Shown here one piece after another: positions 17,241 through 60,082 of a stretch of DNA of 64,000 nt. The DNA is from Myxococcota bacterium. Its GTDB lineage: Bacteria; Myxococcota_A; UBA796; UBA9615; JAKLKC01. Position 1 is the stretch's first letter; every line of letters begins with the position of its first letter. The notes under the pieces were generated by a model. That model saw only the letters and a program-made list of their open reading frames with translations. It searched no databases and was not told the origin of the DNA. The stretch spans positions 5,565 to 69,564 of the forward strand of contig JAKLKC010000012.1 in assembly GCA_023150875.1 (NCBI GenBank), written 5' to 3'. The position numbers were made by a program, and so were the translations under genes.

Positions 17241-17303
17241 TCGAGTACCGAGCCCAGGACGAGCCCCCCGCGTTTCGTCACCAAGCACCCGAACGCCCGC
17301 CGT
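17241..17303. repeat. left copy of imperfect direct repeat (37-bp perfect core 17257-17293), putative attL
   Basis: 17257-17303 matches 59839-59885 with 1 mismatch; weaker identity extends to 17241/59823. Confidence 0.6.
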
Positions 17304-17427
17304 GGGGGTCATGGGGGCAATCGTCGCAGTGGATCGCCCGCGGCGATCTGCGCGTGCCCCGGCATCGAGTCGCCCCGGTGGACGCCAGGGACGACCATGA
17401 GCATACTGATGCACAGGAGGCATCGCG

Positions 17428-17676
17428 ATGGCCCCGACCCGCCGCGCCCAGATCCTGATGGACCCCGAGGAGTACGATGAGCTGGCCCGCATCGCCGAGG
17501 CCAGGATGGTCTCCGTCGCGGAGCTGATCCGCAACGCCGTGCGCGTCGTCTACCTTCGGTCCCGAGACGACCGGCTGGCGACCGTGGGGCGCATCGTGGC
17601 CATGGACCTCCCTGTAGAGCCCTGGCCGCGAACGAAAGCGGAGATCGAGGATGCCTATGACGCCGGCCTTCCTTGA
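17428..17676 (+). CDS. vapB: VapB-like antitoxin
   Basis: 82-aa ORF with RBS 'aggagg' upstream; overlaps downstream PIN gene by 26 nt. Confidence 0.6.
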   Translation: MAPTRRAQILMDPEEYDELARIAEARMVSVAELIRNAVRVVYLRSRDDRLATVGRIVAMDLPVEPWPRTKAEIEDAYDAGLP

Positions 17677-18070
17677 CTCCAACGTCTTCATCTACGCGGC
17701 CGGCGCCGACGGCCCGCTGAAGGCACCCTGCGCGGAGATCCTCCGTCGCGTGGGCGCCGGAGAACTGGACGCCAACACGAGCGTAGAGGTCGTCCAGGAA
17801 CTCCATCACGTCTTCCGCCGGCGCGGTCGGCTTGCCGACGGGGTACGCCTGGCGCGTGACGTCGTGCGCCTCTTCCCCGGGCTGTTGTCGATCACGCGGG
17901 CTGATGTGTTGAGGTCGGGAGACATCCTGATGGCGCGGCCTCAACTGTCCCCCCGGGACGCCCTCCACGCCGCGACCGCCCTGAACAACGGGATCACCAC
18001 CATCATCTCGGTGGACGCGGACTTGGAACACGTCGATGGCCTGTCAAGGCTGGATCCCGCCGGAATGTGA
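17651..18070 (+). CDS. vapC: PIN-domain toxin VapC
   Basis: 'FLDSNVFIYA...' N-terminal Asp, conserved acidic residues, 'ISVDADL' C-terminal; ~139 aa. Confidence 0.75.
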   Translation: MPMTPAFLDSNVFIYAAGADGPLKAPCAEILRRVGAGELDANTSVEVVQELHHVFRRRGRLADGVRLARDVVRLFPGLLSITRADVLRSGDILMARPQLSPRDALHAATALNNGITTIISVDADLEHVDGLSRLDPAGM

Positions 18071-18096
18071 CTCTCAGGGCGCCGCCCGAACCGTGG

Positions 18097-18180
18097 CGCC
18101 CGGGTGAGCCCCTCGTGGGTGAGGGCCGTTCGCGACCCCGGCGGCGAGGTGCGGATGACGGTGGACCGGGTCGCCCCTGA
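18097..18180 (+). pseudogene. fragment of PBP1A gene (copy of nt ~16456-16526)
   Basis: 'gcgcccgggtgagcccctcgtgggtgagggccgt.cgcgaccccggcggcgagg' near-identical to PBP1A. Confidence 0.5.
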
Positions 18181-18309: not shown

Positions 18310-19505
18310 TCACCCGTCCCCCGAGGCCCCGCGGACAACTGCCTCGAGTGCCTCCCACGCGCCCGCCGGATCGAAGGCCCGCGCCGCATGGTCCGCGTCC
18401 AGCAGCGCATCCGGCAGGAACTCGTCGTACTTGTTGGCCGTCTTGTTCCTCACCGTCGCCGCGAGCTCGAGCGGATTCGCCGGCCCCGCCTCGACCAGCG
18501 CACGCAGGTGCTGCGCCATCCCCTCCGGCCGGACCCCGGACACTGCCAGCCCCAGCCCCATGCGCGTCACCGTGAGCCCGCGGGCCTGGAGCTGCACCTG
18601 GATCGTGTTCAGTGCGCGGTCCCCGACCCAGAGGAAGAGCAGCACTTCACTCCCGTAGGGCACGACGGCACGGCGCGCCAGGTCGTATCGGTCGAAGTTC
18701 TCGCGCCCCTCCCGCAGCAGGTCCGCTGCCCGGGCGTCGAGGAACGAGATCGGCTCCGTGGACGTGTACACCCGGTACATCTCCTTCCGCACCCCGTCGT
18801 GCACCGCCCCCCCCGTGCTCCCGAAGAACGGGACCCGCCCTCCCGGGGCTCGCACCAGGTCGAGCACCTTCCGGTCGCAGTCGACCGAGACCACCTTCCA
18901 GCGCCGCCCACCGAAGATCAGGAACATCTCCGGGTACACGGGGAAGGTGATCGGCAGCGTCCCCAGCGCCTTGCCGCCGCTCGTCAAGCGGTACTCCTCC
19001 GGCGTGACGAAGACCGCATAGAAGGTGTGGTGGTTGACCAGCCGCTCGCCCGCCAGCCCCAGCACCAGCACGCCGTCGTGCATCTGCGCGATCAGGTCGT
19101 GGCGGCCCATGCTTCGGAGCAGCTCGCCGAACATCGCCTGGCCGACGTTCGAGAACGGGCCGCCCCGGCAGAGCGCCTCCCACGCCCGGGCCGCGGAGAC
19201 TCCGCCGTGCTGGGCCACCAGCGACAGCACCTGCTGCAACAATGTCGACAGGTGGAGCATCCCCGCCGCGGGAGGCTCGTACCACCCGCGCAGCAGGAGG
19301 CGGACCGTCGCGACCGCCTGCACGAGTTCGGCGCGGAGCGCGTCCTGGGGTGATGGATCACCCGCCAGCTCTTCCTCGGTGACGTACATCCGGAGGATCG
19401 CCGGCTCACCCCGGCGGCCCGAGCGGCCGAGACGCTGTCGCAGGCTCGCGACCGACGGGGGAGCGCCGATCTGGGCCACGCTCCTCACCTGCCCGACGTC
19501 GAGGG
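18310..19505 (-). pseudogene. C-terminal remnant of an Lhr-like DEAD/DEAH helicase (truncated; no N-terminal helicase core)
   Basis: Translation starts matching at helicase motif VI 'LDVGQVRSVAQIGAPPSVASLRQRLGRSGR' and continues through the DEAD/H-associated domain; upstream part of ORF is noise. Confidence 0.55.
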
Positions 19506-20065
19506 GCGGCCGCGCCACCGGTCTGGGTGTCGCCGTTCCCTCGTGCCTGCGATCGTCAGCCGACGCAGTCTGTTGGGACGGCGTGCTCGCGCGAGGGCCC
19601 AGGGGGGCGCGCCCATGATTGGGTTCGTCGCCCTCGGCCAGCGGCTCTCCGTTGCGGTCGAGGGTGCCGTTGACGGTGTCCAGCGACCCTGCGGGGAGCA
19701 TCTCGACGCTGGTGCCGAGGGCCTCCCACTCCCCGCGGGTCCAGGAAGGCCGCTCCGCGAAGGCCCGCAGCAGCGCCGAGTGGGTGCCGTCCAAGCCCGC
19801 GATGATGGGCCCCCGCAACACCCCCCGGTACCCTCCCAGGCATCCACCCAGCACCAGCCAAGTCACACGCGAAGCTCGGACTCCGCACCGCATCGCCCCG
19901 AACGGACCCAGGTGGCCTCGCCCGGTAACAGGCACCCCAACGAGATCGCCGCGTTGTGTGTCCGATCCTCGGTCCGGCCGGCCTCGCCGGTAGGGCTCGA
20001 CGCATGGCCGCCCCCCTTCGCCCCCGGACCCACCGCGACTGGCCTCGGCTGGCGCTCGGCGTCGA

Positions 20066-20871: not shown

Positions 20872-21150
20872 TGCTGGGCACCTCCGACACCTCCCCCCTG
20901 GACCTCGCCGTCGCCTACGCCACCCTGGCGAACGGCGGCGCCCGGGTGAGCCCCCCCTGCCCACCGAGGGCGAAGCGCCGGACGCGGCGGCCATCGACGG
21001 CTCGCCCGCCCCTTCCACCGCCTCGCCCGGCGGCGGCGCCGCCCCGCCATCCGCCGGGGGAGATCCCCCGCGGGATCCCCTGGCCCTCATCGCCCGCCGG
21101 AGGGCCGAGCGCGAGGCCCGGCAGCGGGGCCCAGGAGGGGTAGGGCGCGG
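20872..21150 (+). pseudogene. internally deleted copy of the PBP1A 3' end (matches 16384-16478 + 17025-17195)
   Basis: High nt identity to two PBP1A segments with ~550-nt internal deletion. Confidence 0.55.
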
Positions 21151-21201
21151 ACGAGGGCGGGCGTTGAGGCGGCCGGATGGCCCGGCGTGGGGAGGGAGAG
21201 G

Positions 21202-21405
21202 TCAGGGGACGGCGGAGTCGCCCTTCAGGTCGCCGGTGACGAGGTGGAGCAACTCGGTGGAGAGCTCGATCACCTGCTGGTGGGTGAGCCCGCTGCCCCG
21301 CAGCTCCTTGTAGAAGGAGCGGGCGAGGATCGAGCGCGCGCGGCGCCAGTCGTTGCCGGTGTACTGGGGACGCGTCTGCTGGGCCTGGGTCGCGACCTGC
21401 TTCAT
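21202..21405 (-). CDS. small hypothetical protein (67 aa)
   Basis: Strong RBS 'ggagga' 6 nt upstream of ATG; non-biased composition. Confidence 0.4.
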   Translation of the reverse strand: MKQVATQAQQTRPQYTGNDWRRARSILARSFYKELRGSGLTHQQVIELSTELLHLVTGDLKGDSAVP

Positions 21406-21595
21406 CGGAAGAGAGCCTCCTCCCCATGGGATGGGCCCGGGGTGGACCGGGAGTCGCGGCGTGCGGGTGCAGGCCCCGTGCCACGGCGGCGAACGAAAAT
21501 AGTCCAGTGATTCCGATGGTTTATGATCCAGGGGTGCGTAGCCCGCTGCGCGGTCGAGGGCCCAGGGGCGGGGCGCTGCGTAGCCGACTTCGCAC

Positions 21596-23161
21596 CTAGC
21601 CCCGGGCGAGGTCGTGGTCGTCCAGGTCGACCCGGAGGTGGCGGGCCAGGTGGGGGTGGACCCGCTGGACCTCCCGGAAGACCTGCTGGGCGACCCGCCG
21701 GTAGCTGACGTGGCCCTGTCGGGAGGAGCGCAGGGCCACGAAGTGGGCGAGGGAGCGCAGGTTCCAGGTGAAGAGCACCCGCTTGCGGAAGGCGAGGGGA
21801 ACGGCGTAGGGGGCGCACGCCGGGTGCTCGCGGCGGATCCGCTCCCAGGTCTCGTGGGAGCGCTCCATGTGGCGGCGGTAGGCGTCGCCGAGGCCCATCT
21901 CCTCCACCTCGACCGGGGTCGCGTAGCCCAGGTCGCACCCCAGATCCTGGTTGGACTGGGTGGCGATCCGGTGGCGCTGGACGTCCCGGAAGGCGCCGTA
22001 GTCCATCACCAGGTCGAAGGTGTAGGTGACGTGCTCCAGCTCCCGCAGGGGGGGATCGTGCCGGCCCCGGCGGCCCAGGTACTCGTCCAGGACCCGCCCC
22101 CGGGTCTCGGCGTCCATGGCCTCCGCCGCCCGGCGTGCCGCGCCGTAGGGAAGGTCCGAGAAGCGGTAGAGGATCGCCTCCACGAGGCGCACCTCGGCGT
22201 CGGCCTCCCACCGCACCAGGCGCACCCGGTTGCCCGCCCCCGCGTCGGAACCGAGGTCCTCGGGGAGGGCACCCGCCCCCCCTCCCGCCGCCTCCAGCCA
22301 CCCGGCGACCTCCTTCGCCATCGCCGCCTCGGTCTCCACCCGGTAGGGGCTCGCCTCGGCGTACTTGACCAGGGTGGGGATCACGTGGCGCGACTCCTCC
22401 TTCACGGACTCCCCGAGCCTCCGCACCTCGGCCAGGGGGTGGGAGAGCAGCTTGGAGATCGCCGACTCCAGCGAGCGGCCGTTGATCGTCACCCCCACGT
22501 TGGTGCAGGTGGAGGCGGGCAGGAGGTAGCGCAGCACGTCGCAGGCCTGGGCCCGGATGGCACCGTCGTGGACGGCCCGGGAGCGCCTGCCGGCGGGATC
22601 GTGGGGGGAGCGCCGCTCCAGCCACTCCCGGGCCACGGGCATCATCTCCCGGTAGCCGTCCATCAGGGCGTCGCAGTGCTCCTCCAGCAGCGCCCCCTCG
22701 GGGGTGCCCCGGAGCTCCGCCGGCCGGTGCCAGCGGTCCCGGTCGAAGACCACGTAGCGCGTGGACTTCTCGGTGAAGCTGGCCAGGCGCACGTCCTCCA
22801 GGGCCTTCGAGGCGAGGATGGACACGTCCTCGACGGCGACGTGGGCGACGGCGTGCTCGGCGACCGATCCGTGGCCGTAGCCGACGACCCACTTCTCGTG
22901 GAAGGCCCGGGCCTTGTCCCGGGCGCCGGCCAGGCCATCCCCGTCGGGCGTGGCCGGACCCGCCCCACCCACGTCCAGATCCCCCTGGCGGATCAGGCGC
23001 ACCAGGTTCCGGCGCAGGGAGTCGGGGCTCCGGCTGTAGTACGCGAAGAGCACCGCGATCACCTCCTCGGGGAGGTTCCGCAGGCAGAACACGTCGCCGT
23101 CCAGGCGGGTGACGTAGGGCGCCAGCAGGCGCGCCTCGCTCTCGGTGAAGGACTCGGTCAT
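21596..23161 (-). CDS. thyX: FAD-dependent thymidylate synthase ThyX-like (long, 521 aa)
   Basis: ThyX signature 'QRHRIATQSNQ' (RHRxxxxxS) in C-terminal half; ~2x usual ThyX length. Confidence 0.75.
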   Translation of the reverse strand: MTESFTESEARLLAPYVTRLDGDVFCLRNLPEEVIAVLFAYYSRSPDSLRRNLVRLIRQGDLDVGGAGPATPDGDGLAGARDKARAFHEKWVVGYGHGSVAEHAVAHVAVEDVSILASKALEDVRLASFTEKSTRYVVFDRDRWHRPAELRGTPEGALLEEHCDALMDGYREMMPVAREWLERRSPHDPAGRRSRAVHDGAIRAQACDVLRYLLPASTCTNVGVTINGRSLESAISKLLSHPLAEVRRLGESVKEESRHVIPTLVKYAEASPYRVETEAAMAKEVAGWLEAAGGGAGALPEDLGSDAGAGNRVRLVRWEADAEVRLVEAILYRFSDLPYGAARRAAEAMDAETRGRVLDEYLGRRGRHDPPLRELEHVTYTFDLVMDYGAFRDVQRHRIATQSNQDLGCDLGYATPVEVEEMGLGDAYRRHMERSHETWERIRREHPACAPYAVPLAFRKRVLFTWNLRSLAHFVALRSSRQGHVSYRRVAQQVFREVQRVHPHLARHLRVDLDDHDLARG

Positions 23162-23215
23162 CCCTTCCGATCCGGGCGCCGCTCGCGGGCGGCAGGTGGT
23201 TGGGGGGTGGACAGG

Positions 23216-24295
23216 CTAGAGGTAGTAGGTGAACGCCAGGCCCCCTCCGAGGGGGAACCAGTCGATCCAGTACCGCCACAGGTATGGGGCCGACACGGCG
23301 ACGGTCAGGTGCGCCCGGCCGGTAGGGCCGAGGACGATCTTCCCCCCCAGCGTCCCTTCGAAGAAGAGCGGCACCGCGGTCTCGTCGCCGGCGGTGCGGG
23401 TCGAGTAGTACTGCTCGAAGCCCATCTTCCCGTCGCTCTCGACGAAGAGATGGAAGCGCGGCGACAGGCGGAAGGCGAGGTTGAGGCCGAAGCGGAGCCG
23501 GGGCTCCAGGGGGGTGAACCGGAAGTCCCCCGCCGCCTGGAGCTGGATCTGCACGGGGGTTCCCGGCGGCGCGATCCCCAGGTGGAAGTAAGCCTCCAGG
23601 CCGAGGTCCAGGGCGGGGGCCTGCTGGTAGATCCCCCGGTCGAAGCCGAAGCGGAAGAGGCCGGCGGCGCTGACCAGCAGCCCGGTGCGGACGTCCTTGA
23701 CCAGGGCGTACCGCGCGCCCAGCTCCAGCGTCCCGCCCGAGCCGACGTCCCGGTTCGCCACCTGGGCGAAGGCGCTGAAGGAGCGCCGGAAGGCCCACTC
23801 GACCCCCGCCTCGTAGTTGAAGTAGGTGGTCGCGCCGTAGAAGAGGCTGCCGAAGGCCCGCTTTCGCGTGTTCCCCGGCAGGAACCGGTAGGGCTCGACG
23901 AAGGCCATCTCCTGGGTCCGGGCGTCCTCCACCTGCTTCGCCTGCTCGTCGGCGGCGACGTCCTCGTCGAACTCCTTCTCGACCCGCTTCCGGAGCTCCA
24001 CCGTGCGCTTCTCGATCTCGGCGCGGTACGGCGTCTCGGGATACTCCCGCAGGTAGTTCTGCCAGCCCTCGAGCTGTTCGTCCGCGGGGAGGGGCTTCAT
24101 CTCGCGCTGGAAGGCGAGGTAGAGCTCGGGGGAGTCCGCGGCGGCCTCGGAGAGGTCCTCCTCCGCGCCTCCTTCCCCTTCGACCCCCTCGTCGGGCGCG
24201 GGATCGTCCTCCTCGGCGAGGGCGGCCCCGGGGGCGAGGAGGCCCGTGCACAGGGCCAGGGCGGCGAGGCGGGAGCGGAGTGCGAACGGGCCCAT
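23216..24295 (-). CDS. outer-membrane beta-barrel protein
   Basis: Signal peptide 'MGPFALRSRLAALALCTGLLAPGAALA', alternating amphipathic strands, aromatic C-terminus '...FTYYL'. Confidence 0.55.
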   Translation of the reverse strand: MGPFALRSRLAALALCTGLLAPGAALAEEDDPAPDEGVEGEGGAEEDLSEAAADSPELYLAFQREMKPLPADEQLEGWQNYLREYPETPYRAEIEKRTVELRKRVEKEFDEDVAADEQAKQVEDARTQEMAFVEPYRFLPGNTRKRAFGSLFYGATTYFNYEAGVEWAFRRSFSAFAQVANRDVGSGGTLELGARYALVKDVRTGLLVSAAGLFRFGFDRGIYQQAPALDLGLEAYFHLGIAPPGTPVQIQLQAAGDFRFTPLEPRLRFGLNLAFRLSPRFHLFVESDGKMGFEQYYSTRTAGDETAVPLFFEGTLGGKIVLGPTGRAHLTVAVSAPYLWRYWIDWFPLGGGLAFTYYL

Positions 24296-24493
24296 AAGGG
24301 GCGACCTCCGGACGTTCAGCGGCGGCGGCGGCATGGAGCGGGACGGCCTCCCCCAGCGTCCGGGCGCGGCGGGGCCTCGCCCGCGGGGGGCCCCGATTCA
24401 ACAACAGAACGGCCGCCGGGCGCAAGGGACCGGGGTGGACCCGCATCCCCACGTCCGGGGATCGGCGAGGATCCCGTGATATACCGGGGCGGC

Positions 24494-25198
24494 ATGCGCG
24501 TCGCCATCGTCACCCCCACCTACAACGAGCGCGAGAACGTCGGGGAGCTGATCGCCCGGCTGGCCGCGGCCGTCCCCGGCGCCACCGTCGTCGTCGTGGA
24601 CGACGGCTCCCCCGACGGCACCGCCGACGCCGTCGACGAGGTCGCCCGGGAGCGCCCCGGCGTCCACCTGCTGCGGCGCCCCGGCAAGGCCGGGCTGGCC
24701 TCGGCCTACGTCACCGGCTTCCACCTCGCCCTGGCCCTGGGGGCGGAGCGGATCGTGCAGATCGACGCCGATCTCTCCCACGATCCCGCCGACGTGCCCC
24801 GCCTGCTGGCGGAGCCCGCCGACCTGGTGCTGGGCAGCCGCCACGTCCCGGGGGGCGGCACCCGGGACTGGTCCCTGCACCGGAGGATCCTGTCCCGCTT
24901 CGGCTCCGCCTACGCCCGCGCCTGCCTGGGCCTGCCCCAGCGGGACCTGACCGGCGGCTTCAAGGCCTGGCGCGCCGCCCCCCTGCGGCGCGTGCTCTCC
25001 AGGCCCCTCCTGGCCGACGGCTACGCGTTCCAGGTGGAGACCACCCAGAGGGCGGTGCGGGCGGGGTGCTCCGTCGTCGAGGTCCCTATCGTCTTCACCG
25101 AGAGGGCCCGGGGCGCCTCCAAGATGCGCCTGCCCATCGCCCTGGAGGCGGCGTTGCTGGTGCCCGCCCTCCGCCTGGCCCGCGGTGGCCCCCGGTGA
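24494..25198 (+). CDS. GT2 polyprenol-phosphate glycosyltransferase (Dpm1-like)
   Basis: 'IVTPTYNERENV', 'VVVVDDGSPDGT', 'QIDADLSHDP' GT-A motifs. Confidence 0.8.
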   Translation: MRVAIVTPTYNERENVGELIARLAAAVPGATVVVVDDGSPDGTADAVDEVARERPGVHLLRRPGKAGLASAYVTGFHLALALGAERIVQIDADLSHDPADVPRLLAEPADLVLGSRHVPGGGTRDWSLHRRILSRFGSAYARACLGLPQRDLTGGFKAWRAAPLRRVLSRPLLADGYAFQVETTQRAVRAGCSVVEVPIVFTERARGASKMRLPIALEAALLVPALRLARGGPR

Positions 25199-25295
25199 CC
25201 GCGGTCCCCCGAGGGCGCTTGCGGCCCCCCCGCCCCGGCCCCTACTCTTGGGCCGTCCCCCGGCCCTCGCCGCCACCTGTCCGCCGCGCCACCCC

Positions 25296-26055
25296 GATGG
25301 AAATCGCCCGCTACTTCCAGGAGGTCGAGCTGCTCCTGCTCCACCTGCGAGAGGAGGGTCACTCCCTCTCCTCCGAGGACCTCCAGGTGCTGGAGGCCTG
25401 GTGGGACGGGGGCGTGCCCCTCACGCCGGTGCTGGCGGGGGTCCGCAAGGGGGCGGCCCGCCTGGCCCGCCGCAAGCGCCGGCCCCGGGGGCTCCGCCTG
25501 AAGGCGGTGGGCACCGACGTCGCCCGCGAGGTCAAGAGGGCGGCGAGCCGGGGCGTGGTCTTCCCCCGGGACGACACCCCCGACGTCGTCCCTCCGCCCG
25601 GCGGTGAGATCCCGTGGGGCCTCGACGATCCCCCGGACCCCATCGCCCCCGACGGCGAGGGGGGGGGCTACGCGCCGGACGAGGGGGACGAGCGGGTCCA
25701 CGCCGCGCGGATCGCCGAGGCGCTGGCGGCCGAGGCCGCCCGGATCGCGGACACCTCCCCGGAGGCGGCGGCGTTGGTGCGCTCGGTGGCCGGCGAGGCC
25801 GCGGACCTGGGGGCCGAGAGGGCCTACGTCCGCCTGGTGGAGGTGTCCCGGGCCTTCTACGCCGCCCGCCTCGACGCCCTGGACGCGGTCCCCCGGGGGC
25901 GGCTGCTGGCGGAGTCCCGGGCCTCCCTGGGCCCGGCGGCGGCCCGCATGAAGCCCCAGGCCCTGGAGGAGACGGTGCGAGAGCTGGCCCTTCGCCGCGT
26001 GATGGCCGAGGATCCCGTCCTCGATCCCGACCGCGTCCTGGAGATCCTGCCGTGA
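25296..26055 (+). CDS. hypothetical protein, coupled to downstream AAA ATPase (possible loader/replication partner)
   Basis: Stop TGA overlaps GTG of next gene (GTGA at 26052-26055). Confidence 0.45.
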
Positions 26056-51663: not shown

Positions 51664-54600
51664 CTACTGCACCCAAACCTTCTTGCCCTCCCCGATCAGC
51701 CGCTCGCACTCGTCCCGCAGGGCCTGGATCGCCGCGTCGAGCTGCTCGGGGGTCTCGACGCCCCCCGGGAAGAACGACGACACCCGCACCCGCACCACGC
51801 GGTTGCCGTCGATCATGCGGAGCATCTCCTCCGTCGCCGCCTGGAGCCGCGCCGGGCACGCCTCGGTCTCGGCGCGCACCTGGGGGATGGGGGTGGGGGG
51901 CGGCAGGGCGGTGGTGGCGGGGCCCGCGAGGGGGGCCTCCACCCGGGCCTGCTGGGCAGCGTCGAGCTGGGACCACTCCGGCGCCCCGCGCAGGCGCTCC
52001 ACGGCGGCGGCGTAGGCGGCGCGCCGGGCCTCGACGGCGGCGTCGAAGCGGGCCCGCCAGGCGGCGCCGACCTCCCGGGCGTGCTCGTCGATCCGCGGCA
52101 GCTCCCGGAAGAAGGTCTCGCGCCGCAGCAGGTCGTCCAGCTCCTCGGCCCGCGCCGCCAGGCCTTCGGGGAGGTCCGGCTCCTCCTTCAGGAACGGCCA
52201 CTGGCGGCGCACCGCGTCCCGGGCACGGGCGAGGTCCAGGAGGCGCGGCTCGGTCAGGGCGTCGTCCAGCTCGGCGGCGCGCTTGATGCCCGCCTTGATC
52301 TCCCCGCAGCTCGCGTTGAACGTGGTGATGGCGTTGTCGTCGCCGCCCGTGCGGATCACGCGGACCTGCTCCAGGGCGCGGGCCAGCACCTCGGCCCCCG
52401 GCAGGTCGTCGCGGACCAGGCGGTTGTGGACGTCCTGAAGGGCCTGCTCGTGGCGATGGACCTCGTCCTTGATGGCGCGGGCGACGACTCCCGGCTCCAG
52501 CTCGGCGATCTCCTTGCCGAACACGTCGCGGAAGTGCCCGTCCGCCTTGACCAGCTCCCCGTAGTCGACGCTGACCTTCGGCCGGAACGTCGCCTGCCGG
52601 AAGAGGTTGTTGTTGGTGAACGTCGTCCGCGCGTCGAGGGAGAGGGCGTTGTCGATCACCTGCCCCCGGGAGACCGCCTCCACCTTCCCGGCGCGCAGAA
52701 GGCTCGCCACCAGCAGGCGCACCACGTCGAAGTCCCAGCCGAAGGGCTCCTTGCCCAGCTCGTCGGCCAGCGCCCGGCCGCTCACCAGCTCGCCATAGGC
52801 CGCCTTGTGGGCGATCCGGTTCATCACCTCGGAGAGGGGACCGCCCTCGGTGCGGAACGCGGGCTTGCCCCTCGTCTCCTGGACGAGCTGGAGCTGGGAG
52901 AAGACCGGCGGGAGGCCCCGGAGGTTCTCGGTGGTCAGCAGGGCCTCCAGGTCCTTCGCGGACACCTTCGCGGCGCCGTCCGAGAAGCGGTCGAAGACCT
53001 CGGGGAGCACCCTCGCGAGCACGCCCGCGCAGGCGCGGCCCACGTCGGCGGCGCCGGCCTCGGGGTTGCGCTCGTTGCCGCGGAAGTAGACGGTGCCGGA
53101 GAGCAGGGCTTCCCGCAGGCGCCGCCTCAAGTCGTCCTGGTGGCGCTGGCGGCGGCGCTTCTCCTCGGCCACGAGGGCGGTCTCGTCCCGGGTGGTGGCG
53201 TTGCGCTCGCGTCGGGCCAGGATCTCCTGGCTGCGGAAGACCTCCTCGGTCACGCGGTCCACGGCGTCGTCCAGGCGGGCGATCCAGAAGACGGCGGTGC
53301 GCTCCTCGCGGCTGCGCTGCCGCCACTCCTCGCGCAGGCGGCCCCACTCGGCCTCGTCCGGCGCCAGGGAGACGTGGACCGGAACGTCGCCGGGGGTGAC
53401 GAGGCGGTTGTTCAGGAAGAGCCCGGCCCGGAAGGGCTTGACGTCACGCAGGAGGTGGGACGGCTGGGGCGTCCACAGCCCGTCCACCACCTCGGCGTGG
53501 ATCCGGGCGGCGTCGGCGGGCCGGAGGGAGAGCTTGCCCCGCTGGCCCTCCCAGTCGTCCTCGGCGGGCGTGGGGATCCGGTAGCCGTCCTCGCCCAGGC
53601 GGATGCGGCCCGCGGCGACGAGGGCGTCCAGGGCCGCCTTGACCTCGGGGAGCTGGGAGTCGGCGGTGACGCTCGGGTGGAGGGTGGCGGCGACGTTCTC
53701 GGCGGTGCGGGGGATCCGCTGCTCGTACTGGAGCAGGCAAACCGCCTTGGCGACGGCCTGGGCGCGGGGGTGCGGCACCTCGCGGCCGATGTCGTCGATC
53801 TTCCGGCGCACGTCGCTCGAGACGTTGCCCGAGACGAGGTCGTACACGCGATCGAGGGTGACGAGGGTCCCCTCGGGCTTCGAGGCGAGGTCCACCTCGG
53901 GGTGGATGAGGAGCTGCTGGGCGAGCTTGATGATGGTGCGGGCGGCGCCGCCGACGTGTTTGCTGGCGCCGCCCTGGGTGCGCAGGCCCGAGACGACGTT
54001 GATCACGAGGTCGATCTGGTAGGGGAGGAGGGGGTAGAGGTCGATGAAGCCCTGGTCGGTCAACTCGGGCAGGGCGACGTTGGGGGCGTGGACGCGGGTG
54101 TGGTCCACGAGGCGGCCCCGGTGCTCCCGGTGGAGGGCGCGCAGGCGGGCCTGGGCGTCGGCGTGCTTCTCGAGGACGCGGCGGCTGGTGACCTCGGAGA
54201 TGTCCGAGGGCTCCAGGTGCACCTGGAGGGGGAAGCGGTCCTTCACCTTCGGCAGCTCGATGCGCGTCTGGTCGAGGCCGCCGACCAGCTCCGAGAGGGC
54301 CTCCTGGGAGGTGACCATGACCCAGATCCGCCCGCCGCCCCGCTGGCCCAGGCGCTCGACCACGGCGCGGAGGTCCTCGAGCTTACCGCCGTCCTTGGCG
54401 ACGAACTGGCCGACCTCGTCGATGACGAAGAGCAGGTTGCGCTTTTCGGGCCGGCGCCTCGACAGCAGCTCCAGGCAGCGGTCCGCCAGCAGGGCCGGGG
54501 TGACGTCGCCCCGGCCCTTCGCCCCCTTCACCCAGGAGTCGGGGGCGTTGTAGGTGCGGGGCTCCAGGGCGTGCATGACCGCCGAGGCCCGGCCGATGGC

Positions 54601-55218
54601 GAGGGCGGGCAGGCCCTTGTCGTGGTCCCAGGCCCGGCGGTCGTGGAGCTCGGCGTACTTCGCGACGAAGGCGCCGAGGCGGCCCTCGGCCTCCAGCGTG
54701 ATCTCCAGCTCGGCCAGGTCCAGCTCCCGGGCGTAACCGAGCCGCTGGAGGAAGAGGCGGTACATGATCTCGGTGATCGACTGGTTTCCGGCGCGGATCC
54801 CCCGGTCGGTCGAGACGTCGAAGATCACCGCCTCGGTGGGGACCATCTCGTTCACCTGGCGGAGCAGGACCTCGGCCTTGTTGTCCTTGGGGACGCTGAG
54901 CCGCCGGGCGAGGAGGTCGCCCGCGCGCGCGCCGCCGCCCAGGTCGCGGTCCTCGATGGCGAGGCCTAGCATCTTGGCGAAGCTGGACTTGCCCGAGCCG
55001 AAGAAGCCCGAGATCCACACCGCGGTGCCGTCGTGGGGCTTGCGGAACGCCTCCAGGTAGGCCTCGAGGATGGCGATCTGCTGCCTCCGGATGGAGTCGG
55101 TGACGACGTACTCCGACAGCTCGTGGCGGATCCGCGCCAGGTCGTCGTCGTCGACCTTCACGACCTCCTCGATCCGGCGGTCGACGTCGCGGGCAAAGAG
55201 CTCGGCGATGCGTTCCAT
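51664..55218 (-). CDS. brxC: BREX ATPase BrxC
   Basis: 1184 aa; P-loop 'GFFGSGKSSFAK', 'LLFVIDEVGQF' Walker B; N-terminus 'MERIAELFARDVDRRIEEVVKV' typical. Confidence 0.9.
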   Translation of the reverse strand: MERIAELFARDVDRRIEEVVKVDDDDLARIRHELSEYVVTDSIRRQQIAILEAYLEAFRKPHDGTAVWISGFFGSGKSSFAKMLGLAIEDRDLGGGARAGDLLARRLSVPKDNKAEVLLRQVNEMVPTEAVIFDVSTDRGIRAGNQSITEIMYRLFLQRLGYARELDLAELEITLEAEGRLGAFVAKYAELHDRRAWDHDKGLPALAIGRASAVMHALEPRTYNAPDSWVKGAKGRGDVTPALLADRCLELLSRRRPEKRNLLFVIDEVGQFVAKDGGKLEDLRAVVERLGQRGGGRIWVMVTSQEALSELVGGLDQTRIELPKVKDRFPLQVHLEPSDISEVTSRRVLEKHADAQARLRALHREHRGRLVDHTRVHAPNVALPELTDQGFIDLYPLLPYQIDLVINVVSGLRTQGGASKHVGGAARTIIKLAQQLLIHPEVDLASKPEGTLVTLDRVYDLVSGNVSSDVRRKIDDIGREVPHPRAQAVAKAVCLLQYEQRIPRTAENVAATLHPSVTADSQLPEVKAALDALVAAGRIRLGEDGYRIPTPAEDDWEGQRGKLSLRPADAARIHAEVVDGLWTPQPSHLLRDVKPFRAGLFLNNRLVTPGDVPVHVSLAPDEAEWGRLREEWRQRSREERTAVFWIARLDDAVDRVTEEVFRSQEILARRERNATTRDETALVAEEKRRRQRHQDDLRRRLREALLSGTVYFRGNERNPEAGAADVGRACAGVLARVLPEVFDRFSDGAAKVSAKDLEALLTTENLRGLPPVFSQLQLVQETRGKPAFRTEGGPLSEVMNRIAHKAAYGELVSGRALADELGKEPFGWDFDVVRLLVASLLRAGKVEAVSRGQVIDNALSLDARTTFTNNNLFRQATFRPKVSVDYGELVKADGHFRDVFGKEIAELEPGVVARAIKDEVHRHEQALQDVHNRLVRDDLPGAEVLARALEQVRVIRTGGDDNAITTFNASCGEIKAGIKRAAELDDALTEPRLLDLARARDAVRRQWPFLKEEPDLPEGLAARAEELDDLLRRETFFRELPRIDEHAREVGAAWRARFDAAVEARRAAYAAAVERLRGAPEWSQLDAAQQARVEAPLAGPATTALPPPTPIPQVRAETEACPARLQAATEEMLRMIDGNRVVRVRVSSFFPGGVETPEQLDAAIQALRDECERLIGEGKKVWVQ

Positions 55219-55229
55219 GGCGGGTCTCC

Positions 55230-55817
55230 TCAGAAGATGCGGGGCCGGTAGTTGTGCTCGGCGTCGATCGCGCCCATGAAGCGCAGGCCGGCGGGGCCGT
55301 CGGTCTCGCCGGGGTAGAAGAGCACCGTGGGAACGGCCACCTGGCCCACGAGCTGCTCCAGAAGGGCCGAGGTGCGGTAGAGGGGGTACAGGGCGCCGGC
55401 GCGGACGAGGAGGACGACGTCCCGGAGGGGATCAGCGTCCTTCGGGACCCGGGCGGCGACGAGGCGGTCGAGGCGCTGGTACTCGGCCAGGACCGAGAAG
55501 GCGGTCTCGATCGCCAGGGGGAGGCCGGCCTCGCGCTCCGCCGCGGCGAGGGCGCCGCCCCCCAGCCCCTCGGCAGCGAGGGCGGCGGCGAGGCACTCGG
55601 CGAGGGAGATCCGGGTGACGCGCTTGCCCTTCTGGCCGAGGCGGGTGGCGAGGAGGGTGACCTCCTTGCGGAGCTCGAGCTCGTCCTCGGGCGGGTAGAC
55701 GAAGACCACGAAGGGCATGTCGTGGTAGGCGCTGATCCCCGGGCGGGGGTCCTCCTTGATCAGCGCGGGCTCGAGCCGCCCGGTCAGGCGGGCCTTCCAA
55801 GAGGGAGTGGGGGTCAA
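55230..55817 (-). CDS. brxB: BREX protein BrxB (DUF1788)
   Basis: 'VVFVYPPEDELELRKEV' BrxB N-terminal signature; inferred TTG start with RBS aggag, overlapping brxA stop (TTGA). Confidence 0.7.
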   Translation of the reverse strand: MTPTPSWKARLTGRLEPALIKEDPRPGISAYHDMPFVVFVYPPEDELELRKEVTLLATRLGQKGKRVTRISLAECLAAALAAEGLGGGALAAAEREAGLPLAIETAFSVLAEYQRLDRLVAARVPKDADPLRDVVLLVRAGALYPLYRTSALLEQLVGQVAVPTVLFYPGETDGPAGLRFMGAIDAEHNYRPRIF

Positions 55818-56602
55818 GGCGACAACTCCTCCCGCGCGAACTCCTCGGCGGACGCGCGGGGCAGGCGGAGCTCGGCGACGCTGCCGGCGACCTCGTAGCG
55901 GAGCCGGCCGAGCTGGTGGAGGCGGAACAGCTCCCGTTGCACGTCGTCGGGCCCCATGAGGTACATCCGCCAGTCCGGGGCGTGGACCAGGCGGTGGGGG
56001 TTGGGCTCCTCCCGGGCGGCGGCGTGGAGCAGGTAGAGGAAGGCGTCGTCGGGCAGGTGGTAGGGGACGAACTCCCGGGCGAGGGTCCCGGTCATCAGCC
56101 CGAAGTCCACGGCCATGCGGAGCAGGCCCGAGGCGACGCGGGAGGTGGTGGAGGGGGACCAGCGCTCCTTGATCTCCACGTCCTCGCGGTCGTGGAGGCC
56201 GTCGAGGTAGGGCGCGACGTCCTCGGTGCGGATCCGGAAGGCGCCGGCGGCGTGCTGGTCGTAGAGCCACCGCGACAGGAAGTCGCGCACCAGGAACTCG
56301 TCCCGGGTCATGTGCCACAGGAGCAGGGGGCGGAAAGTCTCGAGGGCGAGGCCGCGCCGGGCCAGCTCGACGAGGACTCGGTCGCGGCCCTCGGTGTCGA
56401 AGCGACGGTTGACGGTCTTGGCCAGGTCCCGCCACCAGTTCGCGCTGCCGGCGCCGACGGGGTCCGCGGACTTGAGGCGGTCGAGGTTCCACTTCCGGGG
56501 CCGGGAGAGGTCCCAGTGGCGGAAGAGGTCGTAGGTGGGCTCGACGAGGGCCCCCTTGATGACGGTGAACGACGAGACGACCCGGGCGCGCGCGCCGGCC
56601 AT
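55814..56602 (-). CDS. brxA: BREX protein BrxA (DUF1819)
   Basis: N-terminal 'VVSSFTVIKGALVEPTYDLF' matches BrxA 'YSSGF...' start; ATG overlaps upstream stop (TGATG). Confidence 0.7.
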   Translation of the reverse strand: MAGARARVVSSFTVIKGALVEPTYDLFRHWDLSRPRKWNLDRLKSADPVGAGSANWWRDLAKTVNRRFDTEGRDRVLVELARRGLALETFRPLLLWHMTRDEFLVRDFLSRWLYDQHAAGAFRIRTEDVAPYLDGLHDREDVEIKERWSPSTTSRVASGLLRMAVDFGLMTGTLAREFVPYHLPDDAFLYLLHAAAREEPNPHRLVHAPDWRMYLMGPDDVQRELFRLHQLGRLRYEVAGSVAELRLPRASAEEFAREELSP

Positions 56603-57156
56603 CACCCCTCCAGGCGGGCGTAGGGGATGGCGGGGGCCTCCCTCTCGCCCCGGAAGAAGCCGGCGGCGAGCAGGCCGAGGGTCTCGTCGTCGAGGGCGCA
56701 CACCCCGGGGAGGGGGACGGCGCGCCCGTCGACGGAGCGCTTGAGGTGGCGGGCCCGGGCCAGCTCGGCCTCGCCGAGGACCTCCAGGGAGCGCAGGCCG
56801 TGGAGCACGTCGCCCTGCAGCCCCGTCAGCGCGGCGAAGAAGGGCGCCCAGCGGTCGGGCTGGTCCATCCAGTCCTGGAGGTGGTCCTCGAAGACCTCCT
56901 CGACCTCGGGGGGGAGGCTGAACAGGGTGGCGCAGGCCGGGGGGTTCCAGAGCTCCCGCGTGCGGGCGCGGGCCACGGCGAGCGCGACCCGGGCCTGGGC
57001 GAACGGGGCGGTGCGAGGGAAGCTCCGCTCGTACAGGGTGCGTCCCAGCGGCCCGAGGACGCCCCGGGTGTTCCACCAGCCCAGCCGGTCCATCTCGCCG
57101 AGGCGCGCCACCACGAGGCGGAGCCGGAAGAGGCGGTCGAAGTCGATCGCGTGCAT
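56602..57156 (-). CDS. hypothetical protein (185 aa) translationally coupled upstream of brxA
   Basis: ATG at 57154-57156; stop overlaps brxA ATG; no recognised motifs. Confidence 0.5.
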   Translation of the reverse strand: MHAIDFDRLFRLRLVVARLGEMDRLGWWNTRGVLGPLGRTLYERSFPRTAPFAQARVALAVARARTRELWNPPACATLFSLPPEVEEVFEDHLQDWMDQPDRWAPFFAALTGLQGDVLHGLRSLEVLGEAELARARHLKRSVDGRAVPLPGVCALDDETLGLLAAGFFRGEREAPAIPYARLEG

Positions 57157-57625
57157 TCGAGACCCGCGGGGAGGGCGGTGGCGGCGGCCCCCGTCCCGGC
57201 GGGCGCACCCGGCGCGAGCGCGCCCGCCCGGGCGCATTCTCTCGCGTCGGCGACGGCGGGTGAAGGGGAGGGGAGCGTGGGGAGGGGCGATTGCCGGGAT
57301 CGATCCGGGATCCCCCACGGTCGGGGAAGGGGAGTCGAGGCGGTAGACCCGGCGTCCCCGAGGGTCGAGGAAGGGTGGTCTACCCCCTCGATCCGGCATG
57401 ACCCGAGGCAGCCGCAGTCAAGGCGTAGCCGGATCGCCCGCCACGGCAGAGCCAGCGCGTCGCGAGGAGCCGTGCGAGGTCGGGGTGATCCCCACCGCGG
57501 TCCCCGAGCCGCCGGACGATCATGCCAGGGCCGGCGAGGGCCAAGACGGCAGCATCCACGCATGTCATCCCTCGGTCGCGCATGTCAGGACGCGGATACC
57601 GGCTTCCGCTGGCCGCGGAAGGCCC

Positions 57626-57786
57626 TGACCACGTGCCCGAACTGTGGTCAGCTCGCCTGACCACGCCGTTGACCGCGCCGTGCCAGCCCGTTGACCGCGC
57701 GCTGACCCCGCTCCGCCCCGCCGCCGACCACGCCCCGAGGGGTCGCTGACCACGTCCGGGAGCCTCCGCCGCGTCCATGTGGTCAG
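57626..57786. promoter_or_regulatory. array of GCTGACCAC[AG] repeats (3 direct, 2 inverted) plus 2x GTTGACCGCGC
   Basis: CTGACCACG at 57625, 57657, 57746; inverted GTGGTCAGC at 57644 and 57780; between BREX operon 5' end and recombinase gene. Confidence 0.4.
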
Positions 57787-58312
57787 CGGATCTGCTGGCC
57801 CGGCGCGGGGTTGGCTGGCTACCGTCAGAGGCAACGACGGGCGCTGGATCCACCCCGGGCCCTCGTTGTCCCTGGACCGTCGGCGCAGCCAACTGCGCGC
57901 CGCCGGTCGGAGGCGAGATGATGCCCGCCGCCGCCGACGCGCCCGCCATCTCCGACGGCACCCCGCGCCCGTTCGGGGGCAATGATCCCGACGACGGCGC
58001 ATTGACGTGGCCCGTCGCGGCGGCCGTCGGCGCCTGCCCGTCCTGCGATCTGACGGCGCCGGACGCTGCCAACGGTGCCGTCGGCGTCGGCATGGGACCG
58101 AACAGCGGCCAGGCGGCATGCACCGTTCGCGGCACCCGTCCTCGCGTCCCGACGGTGGGTCTCCGCCTGACCGCGACGGGGCCCCCCTCGTTCCGGGCGT
58201 GGGCGTCCTGCCTGACCCTCGGCGACCTGGAGGACGTGCTGCGGAAGGCGGTCGCGTAGGCGGCGACGTTACGTCAAGTTCTCGGCGTCCCACCCCATCT
58301 GGAGCCTCCGCC

Positions 58313-60082
58313 ATGCCCATCGTCGGAGCCGCCTACCTGCGGTGCAGCGACCCCCGCCAGGACAAGAGCATCGAGCAGCAGCGAGAGGAGATCCTCCGCC
58401 GCGCCGAGGCCGACGGCGTCGTGATCCCGCCCGAGAACTGGTTCGTGGACGAGGGCCTCAGCGGGCGCTCGACACGGAAGCGCCGCGCCTATCTGGATCT
58501 CATCCGCGTGGCCGAGGTCCAGCGCGACGCCCGCACCGAAAAGCGCCGCGCCCAACCCCAGCGCATCGACCGGCTCTACGTCTGGGCCTTCAGTCGCCTC
58601 GCCCGCAACATGTTCGATGCCCTCCGCGCCTTGGCGGCACTCGACGAGGCCGACATCGACGTGGTCTCGCTCACCGAGCCCGATGCCGGGGATCGCTCCT
58701 TCCGGAAGCTGATCCGGCCAATCCTGGCATGGCTCGCCGAGAGGTACAGCGAGGAGTTGTCCCGCAACGTCCAGCGCGGCATGCGGTCCCAGGCCGAGCG
58801 GGGTTTCTGGCAGTACGGGAACCCGCCCTACGGTTACGCGCTCGAGGAGGGCCGGCTCGTCGTCACCGACGAGACCCGCGCCGACTTCGAGACCGTCCGG
58901 CGCGTCTTCGCGGTCTACCTCGAAGGCCGAGACGGGGCGAAGCGTCTCGCCGAGAGACTCACCGCCGAGAGCATCCGGCCGCCCTCGCGGCGCGATTGCC
59001 CGCGCGATCGGCTCGGCTACGCCTGGCGCCCCAAGCACGTCCTCCAGATCCTTCGAAACCCGGTGTACTGCGGCCACATCGTCCACGACGGCGAGGTCGT
59101 CGCCCGCGGGGTCCACGAGGCCGCGGTGTCCGACGAGGACTTCGCCCGGGTCGCGGCGCTCCGAAAGCTCAAGGAGCGCGTCAAGCTCGACGGAATCGGG
59201 AACGGCCACCACCCGATCCACATCGGCGAGCGCGGGCTGTTCACCCCCTGGCTCCGCTGCGGCTCCTGTAGCGGGCGCATCCGCGTCACCGTCGGCGGGC
59301 GCTCGGGGAAGGCCGACTACTTCTACTACTCATGCGCCTCCCGCGCCGAGAACAAGGCCACCTGTCCCGGCCTGTCCATCCGGACCGAGAAGCTGGACGA
59401 GGCGGTCCTCGCCTACATCCACGACCACGTCCTGTCCCCCGTCAACGTCCAGGCCCTCATCGATCGGTCCCTCGCCGATCTGGCCGAGCAGCCCGACGAC
59501 ATCGCCCAGCAGCGCGCCGCGATTGAAGCGACCATCGCCGAGCTGGACCGCCGTATCCGCCTCGTCGGCCACCAAGTCCTGGACGGCATCCTGGCCCCGT
59601 CCGACGCGAAGGCGCTCAACGCCCCGCTGCTCGCCCAGCGCGAGACCGCCCAGCTCCGGCTCGCCTCCCTGCCGCAGCGGCGCGAGTTGCCCACCGTCGT
59701 CGACTGCGACCGCTTCCGCGCGGCCGTGCTGGAGGCGTGGACGGCGAAGCCCCTCGACGACCGCCGCGCCGCGCTGGACCGTCTGCTCGACCGGATCACC
59801 CTCGGCGAAGCCGGCGCCCATATCGAGTACCGCGCGAAGGACGAGCCCCCCGCGTTTCGTCACCAAGCACCCGAAGGCCCGCCGTACACCCCCATGTCCG
59901 CGCGGGTGCCGTCGGGGTCGTTCCAGGTGGGATCGGGGTCGGCGGCGTCTCGGAGGGGGGAGGTGGGGCGGAGGTGCCAGTCGTCGTTGTCGGGGTCGCC
60001 GTCGGGAGTGGCGGTCACGAAGGCGGGGTCCACCGAGAGGTTGCCGTCGGTGCCCGTCCAGGGGCGGATGGCGCCGTCGTAG
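58313..60082 (+). CDS. large serine recombinase (integrase)
   Basis: 'AAYLRCSDPRQ' catalytic Ser region, 'VWAFSRLARN', recombinase domain, zinc ribbon 'CGSCSGR...CASRAENKATC', coiled-coil; ORF reads through the repeat so true C-terminus is uncertain. Confidence 0.8.
   Translation: MPIVGAAYLRCSDPRQDKSIEQQREEILRRAEADGVVIPPENWFVDEGLSGRSTRKRRAYLDLIRVAEVQRDARTEKRRAQPQRIDRLYVWAFSRLARNMFDALRALAALDEADIDVVSLTEPDAGDRSFRKLIRPILAWLAERYSEELSRNVQRGMRSQAERGFWQYGNPPYGYALEEGRLVVTDETRADFETVRRVFAVYLEGRDGAKRLAERLTAESIRPPSRRDCPRDRLGYAWRPKHVLQILRNPVYCGHIVHDGEVVARGVHEAAVSDEDFARVAALRKLKERVKLDGIGNGHHPIHIGERGLFTPWLRCGSCSGRIRVTVGGRSGKADYFYYSCASRAENKATCPGLSIRTEKLDEAVLAYIHDHVLSPVNVQALIDRSLADLAEQPDDIAQQRAAIEATIAELDRRIRLVGHQVLDGILAPSDAKALNAPLLAQRETAQLRLASLPQRRELPTVVDCDRFRAAVLEAWTAKPLDDRRAALDRLLDRITLGEAGAHIEYRAKDEPPAFRHQAPEGPPYTPMSARVPSGSFQVGSGSAASRRGEVGRRCQSSLSGSPSGVAVTKAGSTERLPSVPVQGRMAPS
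59823..59885. repeat. right copy of imperfect direct repeat (perfect core 59839-59875), putative attR
   Basis: See 17241..17303; covers the last 8 codons + stop of gene 59860..61527. Confidence 0.6.

Follow-up and report, generated by a model that had tools for sequence, protein, structure and literature searches.

A stretch of 64,000 nucleotides from a Myxococcota bacterium (assembly GCA_023150875.1, contig JAKLKC010000012.1, positions 5,565 to 69,564 of the forward strand; hereafter the window, whose numbering is used throughout) carries what is probably, with a likelihood of roughly three in four, a 26.8-kb mobile defence island at 33043-59885 that was integrated into the tail of a beta-helix protein gene through a large serine recombinase (LSR). 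A preliminary description of the same sequence had noted a long direct repeat, one copy beside the PBP1A gene and the other within the recombinase gene, and had taken the two copies as the attL and attR of one 42.6-kb element. On the reading preferred here the right copy does belong to an element end, and the left copy is a stray relic of a second recombinase gene. In what follows, P and P' are the arms of the element's attachment site, B and B' those of the host target, and a junction is written as left arm/right arm.

The right end of the island is made up of the following features:
58313..60082, + strand: large serine recombinase gene (Pfam Resolvase, Recombinase, Zn_ribbon_recom)
59823..59910, no strand assigned: attR, consisting of the P arm at 59823-~59879 (including the right repeat), the core GGCCCGCC and the B' arm TACACCCCCATGTCC...
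59860..61545, - strand: beta-helix/MopE-motif protein gene, the integration target (Pfam Beta_helix, NosD, Cu-binding_MopE)

The recombinase combines the N-terminal catalytic domain of the large serine recombinases (PF00239, E=1e-22) with their C-terminal Recombinase domain and zinc ribbon (PF07508, E=1e-14; PF13408, E=1e-10), and the latter two are also among the precomputed domains of nearly all of its homologues. S12 and R10 of the catalytic motif AAYLRCSDPRQD are nearly invariant in 33 homologues, as is the catalytic-serine motif YLRCSD. The conserved part of the protein ends with ...FRHQAPEGPP at 59884, after which 65 more codons run antisense into the beta-helix gene; up to the crossover the reading frame contains no stop, and the first one it meets lies in beta-helix gene DNA. 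A protein search returned 120 homologues that are conserved to '...GPP' and then split immediately into discrete classes. In about 33, the window enzyme included, GPP is followed by '[YN][AT]PMSxRxPS...', which is the antisense of the beta-helix family motif '...DGSRxDMGAY'; 12 of the 120 continue into one of three types of P' arm, and 19 have a stop directly after GPP.

Read on the other strand, the recombinase codons for H-x-x-P-x-G-P-P spell 'GGPxGxW-stop', and the target sequence '..DMGAY' comes next. In the window the beta-helix gene ends ...DMGVYGGPSGAW-stop, with the B' arm TACACCCCCATGTCC... as the antisense of ..DMGVY and the last 8 codons, GGPSGAW-stop, supplied by the element. Junction tables for the roughly 19 related loci with available DNA contain the identical P/B' fusion, to '...D[MVI]G.[YFW]/GGPxGxW-stop'. 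Most of 120 beta-helix homologues end natively in '...GAYGGPxGxW(P)-stop', so that the P arm amounts to a copy of the native tail by which the gene is restored. Judged by these fusions, the right repeat is the P arm of a genuine attR, that is, the conserved 3' end of the LSR gene. Much of the preliminary description stands here: the recombinase reading frame does pass through the right copy, this copy does hold the last 8 codons of the beta-helix gene (which ends at 59860) and would keep that gene intact upon insertion, and the same fusion at about 19 loci confirms the right repeat as an attachment-site junction of an LSR element. Two more distant family members (L032:9359 and L033:11578) continue after ...GPP into the antisense of '..AYYVRxGGP', a hint that a sister clade has a second family of target genes. 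In the window's beta-helix gene, 18/21-nt tandem repeats within the 5' part (61204-61458) code for an Asp/Thr/Pro-rich linker.

The partner of this attR is found far inside the region bracketed by the repeat:
33019..33042, - strand: displaced native beta-helix tail, the B arm of attL (antisense GGPYGAW-stop; from regex and pattern scans)
33043..33110, + strand: P' arm of type 2, the cognate left end of the island (..GGGGGGTCGGCGGCGAAACG..; 82% to L067)

The junction at 33042/33043 reads CACCACGCCCCGTACGGCCCCCCT/TCGGGGGGTCGGCGGCGAAACG.... and was located by tblastn with the read-through tails of P'-class homologues, the read-through peptide of P0046 matching the type-2 P' arm at E=2e-4. Window positions 33017-33089 align with 3849-3921 of the related locus L067, the left end of its recombinase unit, at 82% over 73 bp (E=7e-14), and the type-2 P' arm aligns with L013 and L028 as well. 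A leave-one-out nhmmer search recovered the site at E=5e-11 with the full junction and at 2.6e-4 with the P' arm alone. When the window was searched with the tail pattern, zero-mismatch matches occurred at 17280, 33020 and 59862 only; the displaced tail at 33019-33042 is identical to the P arm at attR in 19 of 26 positions. To the left of 33019 lie a promoter-like spacer of 264 bp and then core genes, and tblastn found no recombinase-like coding sequence there. With the cognate attL at 33042/33043, the unit therefore extends over 33043-59885, or 26.8 kb. A fold test for a terminator downstream of the displaced tail, accompanied by a pattern scan, gave z=-1.2, and Rfam yielded no RNA family in the region.

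The two arms also fit together as attachment sites. Joining the recombinase P arm to the P' arm at 33 kb rebuilds an attP that is a 60-bp imperfect palindrome, symmetric at 21 of 30 positions about GGCC^CGCC and bounded by the outer motifs GTTTCG/CGAAAC. Symmetry of the same order is found in L013 (22/30) and L067 (21/30), against about 9/30 by chance, and joining the P arm to the P' arm at 17 kb instead gives just 16/30. The rebuilt attB is symmetric at 17 of 30 positions, including positions 2-8 from the centre (GTACGGC C^C GCCGTAC), so that both sites have the dyad symmetry typical of large serine recombinases. An inner 8-bp inverted repeat was also considered as a criterion; it is perfect in the window's rebuilt attP but fails in L013, and was dropped. 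In an ordinary LSR reaction, attP and attB would be exchanged at the central CC within GGCCCGCC. The empty attB of the locus is predicted to be CCGCTCCGTCGCTCACCACGCCCCGTACGGCC/CGCCGTACACCCCCATGTCCGCGCGGGTGCCG, and the circular attP of the 26.8-kb unit CCCCGCGTTTCGTCACCAAGCACCCGAAGGCC/CCCCTTCGGGGGGTCGGCGGCGAAACGTGAGT.

Related loci contain the same kind of unit in single and stacked form. L013, 8.2 kb long, is a simple element with a single attL and a single attR, which have only GGCCCGCCGT in common, and L063 holds a solo BLUF cassette of 1.15 kb with a displaced tail GGPLGGW-stop; L063 was tried as a candidate empty site and rejected on account of that cassette. In L067, where the recombinase gene is 85% identical in nucleotide sequence to that of the window, four tail-mimic/P' junctions lie about 1 kb apart, and cassettes encoding Phd/PIN, Zeta toxin and HepT/MNT precede a 7.7-kb recombinase-bearing unit. 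L012 has two tail/P' junctions 1.45 kb apart. A 207-kb contig carries two such recombinases at a distance of 8.6 kb, the first with a P/P'-type end and the second overlapping a beta-helix gene. The internal junctions of these arrays join a recombinase 3' end or a tail mimic to the P' arm of the next unit.

The recombinase-less units, each about 1 kb (L067:1049-11569, L012:11626-13079 and L063:7557-8737), are bounded by a tail mimic of about 25 bp joined to a P' arm, stand head-to-tail at beta-helix tails, and carry Phd/PIN, Zeta toxin, HepT/MNT, a 364-aa open reading frame (ORF) or a BLUF protein. Two metagenome contigs (L015:1-74 and L018:1-72) start precisely at the att core (GGCCCGCCGT/P' arm); such breaks may mean that integrated, excised and stacked forms occurred together in the population sampled.

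The direct repeat itself is beyond doubt as an observation. Its 37-bp perfect core GGACGAGCCCCCCGCGTTTCGTCACCAAGCACCCGAA occurs twice in the window, at 17257-17293 and 59839-59875 (0 matches in 100 shuffles with up to 3 mismatches tolerated), and is followed in both copies, after one mismatch, by GCCCGCCGT; in a BLASTN alignment the repeat grows to 63 bp with 93.7% identity (17241-17303 versus 59823-59885), and it has no further copy in the window. Between the two copies, 4 of the 63 positions differ, and the flanks are unlike on either side. The preliminary description was thus accurate about the position, the core and the leftward extension of the repeat, and equally in placing the left copy just past the PBP1A stop (17212) with vapBC as the first genes to its right:
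17229..17303, + strand: left repeat, a relic of the last ~21-25 codons of a second LSR gene (P-arm relic; antisense GGRSGAW-stop)
17304..17371, + strand: P' arm of type 1, left end of the vapBC cassette (GGGGTCATGGGGGCAAT...)
17428-17676, + strand: vapB (Pfam RHH_1, weak)
17651-18070, + strand: vapC (Pfam PIN)

What the left copy represents is a different matter. Its alignment with the 3' end of the recombinase gene in L067 shows 85% identity and begins at about 17229, some 75 bp before the crossover, and tblastn with recombinase C-termini finds the copy as well. The differences between the left and right copies look coding (VEYRAQDEPPAFRHQAPERPP versus IEYRAKDEPPAFRHQAPEGPP). Directly to its right, GGGGTCATGGGGGCAAT... 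matches a motif in L012 exactly, and its read-through peptide WGSWGQ is common to the homologues P0021, P0042 and P0051 ('...GPPWGSWGQ'); a leave-one-out nhmmer search over 17275-17370 gave E=5e-8. The left copy is, by this comparison, what remains (about 75 bp) of the 3' end of another, nearly identical LSR gene, and it runs into the P' arm of the vapBC cassette. Because codon-conserved recombinase sequence runs into a P' arm that elsewhere follows '...GPP', the junction is of inter-element or attP type and not a host B/P' junction; it is read as array-internal because stacked elements produce just such recombinase-end/P' junctions. The vapBC cassette has no right arm of its own, and the Phd/PIN cassette in L067 is analogous to it. 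The possibility that the 17-kb junction is a decayed second target was rejected, as tblastn with 121 beta-helix proteins detected no beta-helix relic there or, as a second one, elsewhere in the window. The two repeat copies would then share ancestry as recombinase 3' ends and would not be the two ends of one mobile unit. The preliminary description had named the occurrence of the repeat at many other loci, as a generic family, as evidence against its own reading; this applies in part, the sequence being the conserved 3' end of a widespread recombinase family, with two copies in the window. For annotation the long repeat is a decoy, since repeat-based island finders would wrongly take in thyX and an ABC transporter.

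These two lie in a block between the left copy and the island, in the company of several PBP1A remnants:
14633..17212, + strand: PBP1A, functional copy (Pfam Transgly, Transpeptidase)
18083..18177, + strand: PBP1A fragment A (= 16440-16530, 93%)
18310..19935, - strand: decayed Shango relic, a SngA C-terminal piece fused to the SngC C-terminal half (PADLOC, Pfam TerB_C)
20872..21169, + strand: displaced original PBP1A 3' end, now a pseudogene (fragments B and C)
21202..32754, - strand: core block, with a 67-aa gene, thyX, a 372-aa protein, GT2, an IstB-like ATPase, a 559-aa protein, an ABC auxiliary protein, an ABC-2 permease and an ABC ATPase

The closest relatives of the window's ThyX include one that is 99% identical (L061, a strain contig that covers 21127-28636 at 98.8% identity) and one that is 68% identical (L062, GCA_964426935.1). 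L062 has the same gene order (ABC ATPase, ABC-2 permease, auxiliary protein, 568-aa protein, IstB-like ATPase, 270-aa protein, 359-aa protein, thyX and a 69-aa gene), and a convergent PBP1A gene about 10 bp beyond the 69-aa gene. Because L062 has the same genes in the same order beside PBP1A, the segment at 21.2-32.8 kb is best taken as core chromosome whose ancestral neighbour is PBP1A, and as part of no mobile element; 11.6 kb of such chromosome separates the scar zone described next from the island. Related strains with the same 42 kb but no repeat or recombinase had been named in the preliminary description as telling against a single element; one relative has the middle block in this state. 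In tetranucleotide usage the block from thyX to the ABC genes agrees with the flanks (correlation r=0.992), the values being 0.968 for the island and 0.967 for the scar zone.

Compared with L062, the window has about 4 kb extra between PBP1A and the small gene, and this scar zone contains, in addition to the recombinase relic, its P' arm and vapBC, a PBP1A fragment, the Shango relic, an unassigned ORF and the displaced PBP1A end. The last ~750-830 bp of PBP1A are duplicated there as scars: fragment B corresponds to 16383-16465 (94%) and fragment C to 16993-17214 (82%, with indels and an in-frame stop), and the displaced end adjoins the small gene in the same way as PBP1A in L062. On their left sides the two PBP1A fragments begin at different points, a pattern that looks like the outcome of successive insertions at PBP1A, each replacing its 3' end; no integrase remains at these insertions, and a tblastx comparison of the scar zone with the rest of the window gave high-GC noise only. 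The displaced end, the rightmost of three partial copies (82-94%), has a microhomology-bounded internal deletion. In the Shango relic, PADLOC recognized SngC residues 332-717 of 720 (E=1e-117) along with a SngA C-terminal match.

Several points weigh against placing the island at 33043-59885 with a stray relic at 17 kb. The relative used for synteny is distant, and on the far side of its ABC operon it has a DEAD_2 helicase and not a beta-helix gene; for adjacency of the ABC operon and the beta-helix tail in the ancestor, the displaced 24-bp tail is the sole witness. That tail could instead be the end of another unit's P arm. The type-1 P' arm by itself was weak in the leave-one-out test (E=0.12), and the preferred reading offers the relic no route to the PBP1A locus. 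The contig is metagenome-assembled, and an independent assembly confirms 21127-28636 only. For this locus neither an empty site nor a circular junction nor a strain polymorphism came to light, so that activity is inferred only: a scan of a genome collection with PBP1A returned relatives of only ~33% identity and no empty site, and exact-protein look-ups of PBP1A, the beta-helix protein, VapC and the recombinase found nothing on record.

In an alternative history, 33042/33043 would be an internal junction between stacked units, its 24 bp a P-arm relic, the true attL having been lost and the boundary between ABC genes and island having arisen by later rearrangement. The ~25-bp tail mimics that end recombinase-less cassettes in L067 and L012 do look like a displaced native tail, and the helicase beside the ABC operon in L062 points the same way. 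This history is nonetheless unlikely, as nothing but the short spacer intervenes between 33019 and the core genes, and the P' arm at 33043 pairs as cognate with the P arm of the resident recombinase; were it true, it would alter the history only, and 33043-59885 would remain the recombinase-bearing unit.

It is also improbable that 17.3-59.9 kb is one tandem array at the beta-helix tail, with thyX and the ABC genes as cargo of a middle unit and the leftmost units cut by a deletion that reached PBP1A. Arrays in relatives have several internal junctions, and the window junctions at 17303 and 33042 are oriented like attR; but the displaced PBP1A end abuts the small gene and thyX as in L062, which makes the PBP1A-thyX adjacency ancestral and not the product of a deletion, and the block is native in composition and housekeeping in content (thyX). 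There is very little to be said for an assembly artefact, in which the metagenome contig would be chimeric or mis-joined at the repeats and the left copy or its context would not be real. The source is a metagenome-assembled genome with the limited independent support given above, and several related metagenome contigs are broken precisely at the att core. The copies differ in sequence, however, which makes a collapsed repeat unlikely, and their flanks differ too; with 37 bp the perfect core falls short of the k-mer with which assemblers usually finish, even a mis-join there would require a repeat beside PBP1A, and the PBP1A scars are diverged (82-94%) and not exact repeats. As for a single, possibly composite element that spans 17.3-59.9 kb and moves as a unit with the repeats as attL and attR, a long and statistically secure direct repeat brackets the region, the recombinase and a toxin-antitoxin pair stand at opposite ends, and serine-recombinase cassette chromosomes can bear ~50-bp direct repeats at both ends (PMC6222049), but the proposal is hardly tenable when its left site is a recombinase relic joined to a P' arm and not a host arm joined to one, the cognate attL and the displaced original PBP1A 3' end both lie inside it, its middle is syntenic core of flank-like composition (which already contradicts it), and its loss as a unit would delete thyX too. 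The suspicion voiced in the preliminary description that the region is composite was well founded.

Within the island at 33043-59885, the cargo expected from the preliminary description (a defence island accompanied by pseudogene scars) is indeed present:
33162..33308, + strand: stop-containing relic of the 5' end of a Shango-relic-ORF homologue (inverted match to 19824-19970, 78%)
38219..39052, + strand: prokaryotic viperin pVip (PADLOC E=2e-83; Pfam Radical_SAM)
39312..57399, - strand: BREX type 1 genes (Pfam, PADLOC, NCBIfam BrxE), with Septu and DUF6932 genes inserted among them, as follows
39312-41348, - strand: brxL (PADLOC E=5e-287)
41353-~43920, - strand: pglZ (PADLOC E=3e-238)
44912-45445, - strand: DUF6932 gene, between pglZ and pglX
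45539-46228, - strand: ptuB of Septu (PADLOC E=4e-60)
46225-~47510, - strand: ptuA of Septu (PADLOC E=8e-141)
47511-51617, - strand: pglX (PADLOC E=0)
51664-55218, - strand: brxC (PADLOC E=0)
~55230-55760, - strand: brxB (PADLOC E=5e-50)
55814-~56596, - strand: brxA (PADLOC E=3e-82)
56602-57399, - strand: brxE (NCBIfam BrxE)

The BREX type 1 system is complete, with brxA, brxB, brxC, pglX, pglZ and brxL all present, and Septu is represented by both its PtuA ATPase and its PtuB HNH nuclease. Septu and the DUF6932 gene are embedded in the BREX operon between pglZ and pglX, and the region at 44912-48216 looks like a secondary insertion into BREX. An inverted match of 149 bp ties the Shango-relic ORF of the scar zone to the left end of the island, where the stop-containing relic, just inside that end, covers in inverted orientation the promoter and first ~37 codons of that ORF. 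An 83-bp direct repeat of 90% identity (43857-43939 versus 45479-45560) flanks the DUF6932 gene, ptuA in its longest reading frame shares ~700 bp with pglX, and at 46-50 kb the GC content is down to 64-68%. Elsewhere in the window, two tRNA-Ser genes (anticodons CGA and GGA) and a small SRP RNA are clustered upstream at 5987-6407, and paralogous gene segments at 1810-3017 and 3533-4339, ~80% identical and 1.3-1.7 kb apart, are unrelated to the island.

Upstream of the recombinase start, only the ~125 bp at 58131-58256 are conserved with other elements, matching on both strands, and the upstream module usual in the family (an HTH gene and a ~160-aa ORF) is missing in the window. The conserved stretch may be a regulatory region. 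No directionality factor could be named, because just these ~125 bp before the recombinase gene are shared with other elements. The family does not look phage-borne, because a scan of viral contigs gave only recombinases of 31% identity and no close relative. The literature searches made yielded no account of the recombinase family, and the locus exposes what is apparently an undescribed clade of serine-recombinase elements.

The attP would be the ~60-bp imperfect palindrome GTTTCG...GGCC^CGCC...CGAAAC. The LSR gene crosses its own attachment site, its last ~8 codons (HQAPEGPP) being antisense to the copy of the target tail (GGPSGAW-stop). Insertion thus rebuilds the beta-helix gene, pushes the original tail GGPYGAW-stop (33019-33042) to the far end of the island, and leaves the recombinase stop codon to be supplied by the DNA beyond the crossover. 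Regenerated tails could presumably be used again as targets, leading to stacking, and recombinase-less cassettes might be moved in trans by the LSR. More tentatively, and at somewhat less than even odds, the clade may run a form of cassette-chromosome-like and integron-like capture in Myxococcota and other phyla, in which recombinase-bearing islands and ~1-kb recombinase-less cassettes (with toxin-antitoxin pairs, a BLUF protein or defence genes) have LSR-type palindromic sites with an inner arm that copies '...YGGPxGxW-stop', each insertion regenerates the target, and units pile up serially. With the recombinase gene overlapping the site on the opposite strand, its C-terminal extension and stop would differ between integrated, excised and stacked states and could be a built-in sensor of them.

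The clade targets a short, widely conserved protein tail and restores it by antisense mimicry within the recombinase coding sequence. Should the sites and the enzyme work as proposed, the serine-integrase toolbox would gain a compact attP/attB pair whose GC-rich core is defined, and the arrays would offer a model for the growth of defence islands through serial site-specific capture outside integrons. The stacking of defence and toxin-antitoxin cargo in arrays parallels that of SCCmec and ECC in a distant phylum.

By analogy, the closest known system is indeed the cassette chromosome of SCCmec and ECC type. Among SCC-type elements, recombinase-less units are known as psiSCC. SCC and ECC elements, 21-78 kb in size, use large serine recombinases, preserve the 3' end of a conserved gene, and have att repeats at unit boundaries as well as multiple attR sites and remnants (PMC6222049). 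Like SCCmec, psiSCC and ECC with their CcrAB or CcrC recombinases, the island is inserted in the 3' end of a gene that remains intact through the element's matching end; likewise, the target reading frame is preserved, att is repeated at boundaries, composite arrays include recombinase-less units, and the accessory or defence cargo is variable. Unlike them, the elements described here have a single recombinase, encoded by a terminal gene that reads across the att site, and it is not a Ccr (NCBIfam CcrA 64 bits against a cut-off of 700, CcrB 52 against 900, CcrC 22 against 900). The target, in the window and in about 19 related loci, is the tail of a MopE/beta-helix gene and not rlmH, the host belongs to Myxococcota, and the att core is GGCCCGCC instead of TATCATAA.

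When a phage serine integrase inserts within a gene, the target is usually disrupted, and a 2-bp core is all that the two sites have in common. The integrases of phiC31, Bxb1 (in groEL1) and SPbeta (SprA, in spsM) have the same three-domain enzyme (PMC5499854, PMC3836970), and they too combine an imperfect attP palindrome of ~50-60 bp beside the integrase gene with an attB in coding sequence. In the window, however, the gene is restored, as the P arm reproduces the target's last ~8 codons, and the elements are not prophages. With chromosomal integrons the arrays share head-to-tail cassettes of ~1 kb and single function, many of them toxin-antitoxin or defence genes (10.1101/2024.07.02.601686; compare L067), each with a palindromic recombination site and without a recombinase of its own. 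The enzyme, however, is a serine recombinase and not the tyrosine recombinase IntI, and the sites resemble LSR attP palindromes and not attI or attC; they would act as double-stranded LSR-type sites and not as the folded single strands of attC, in arrays that stand at a gene 3' end and not at attI.

In tRNA and tmRNA islands, by the logic of Islander, a restored target and a displaced fragment mark the two ends of an island (PMC4383910). The corresponding pair in the window is GGPSGAW-stop at attR and GGPYGAW-stop at 33019-33042, although those islands have tyrosine integrases and longer identical cores, whereas the window sites share a core of ~10 bp together with the partial mimicry described above. 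The archaeal integrase of SSV1 is a tyrosine recombinase whose gene contains attP and is split in two on integration. There, as here, the recombinase gene overlaps its own attachment site and integration alters the product, but in the window recombinase only the residues after GPP and the stop codon would be exchanged. Set beside these systems, the island appears to be a cassette-chromosome-type element moved by a serine recombinase, and distinct from SCC and ECC in clade, in target and in phylum.

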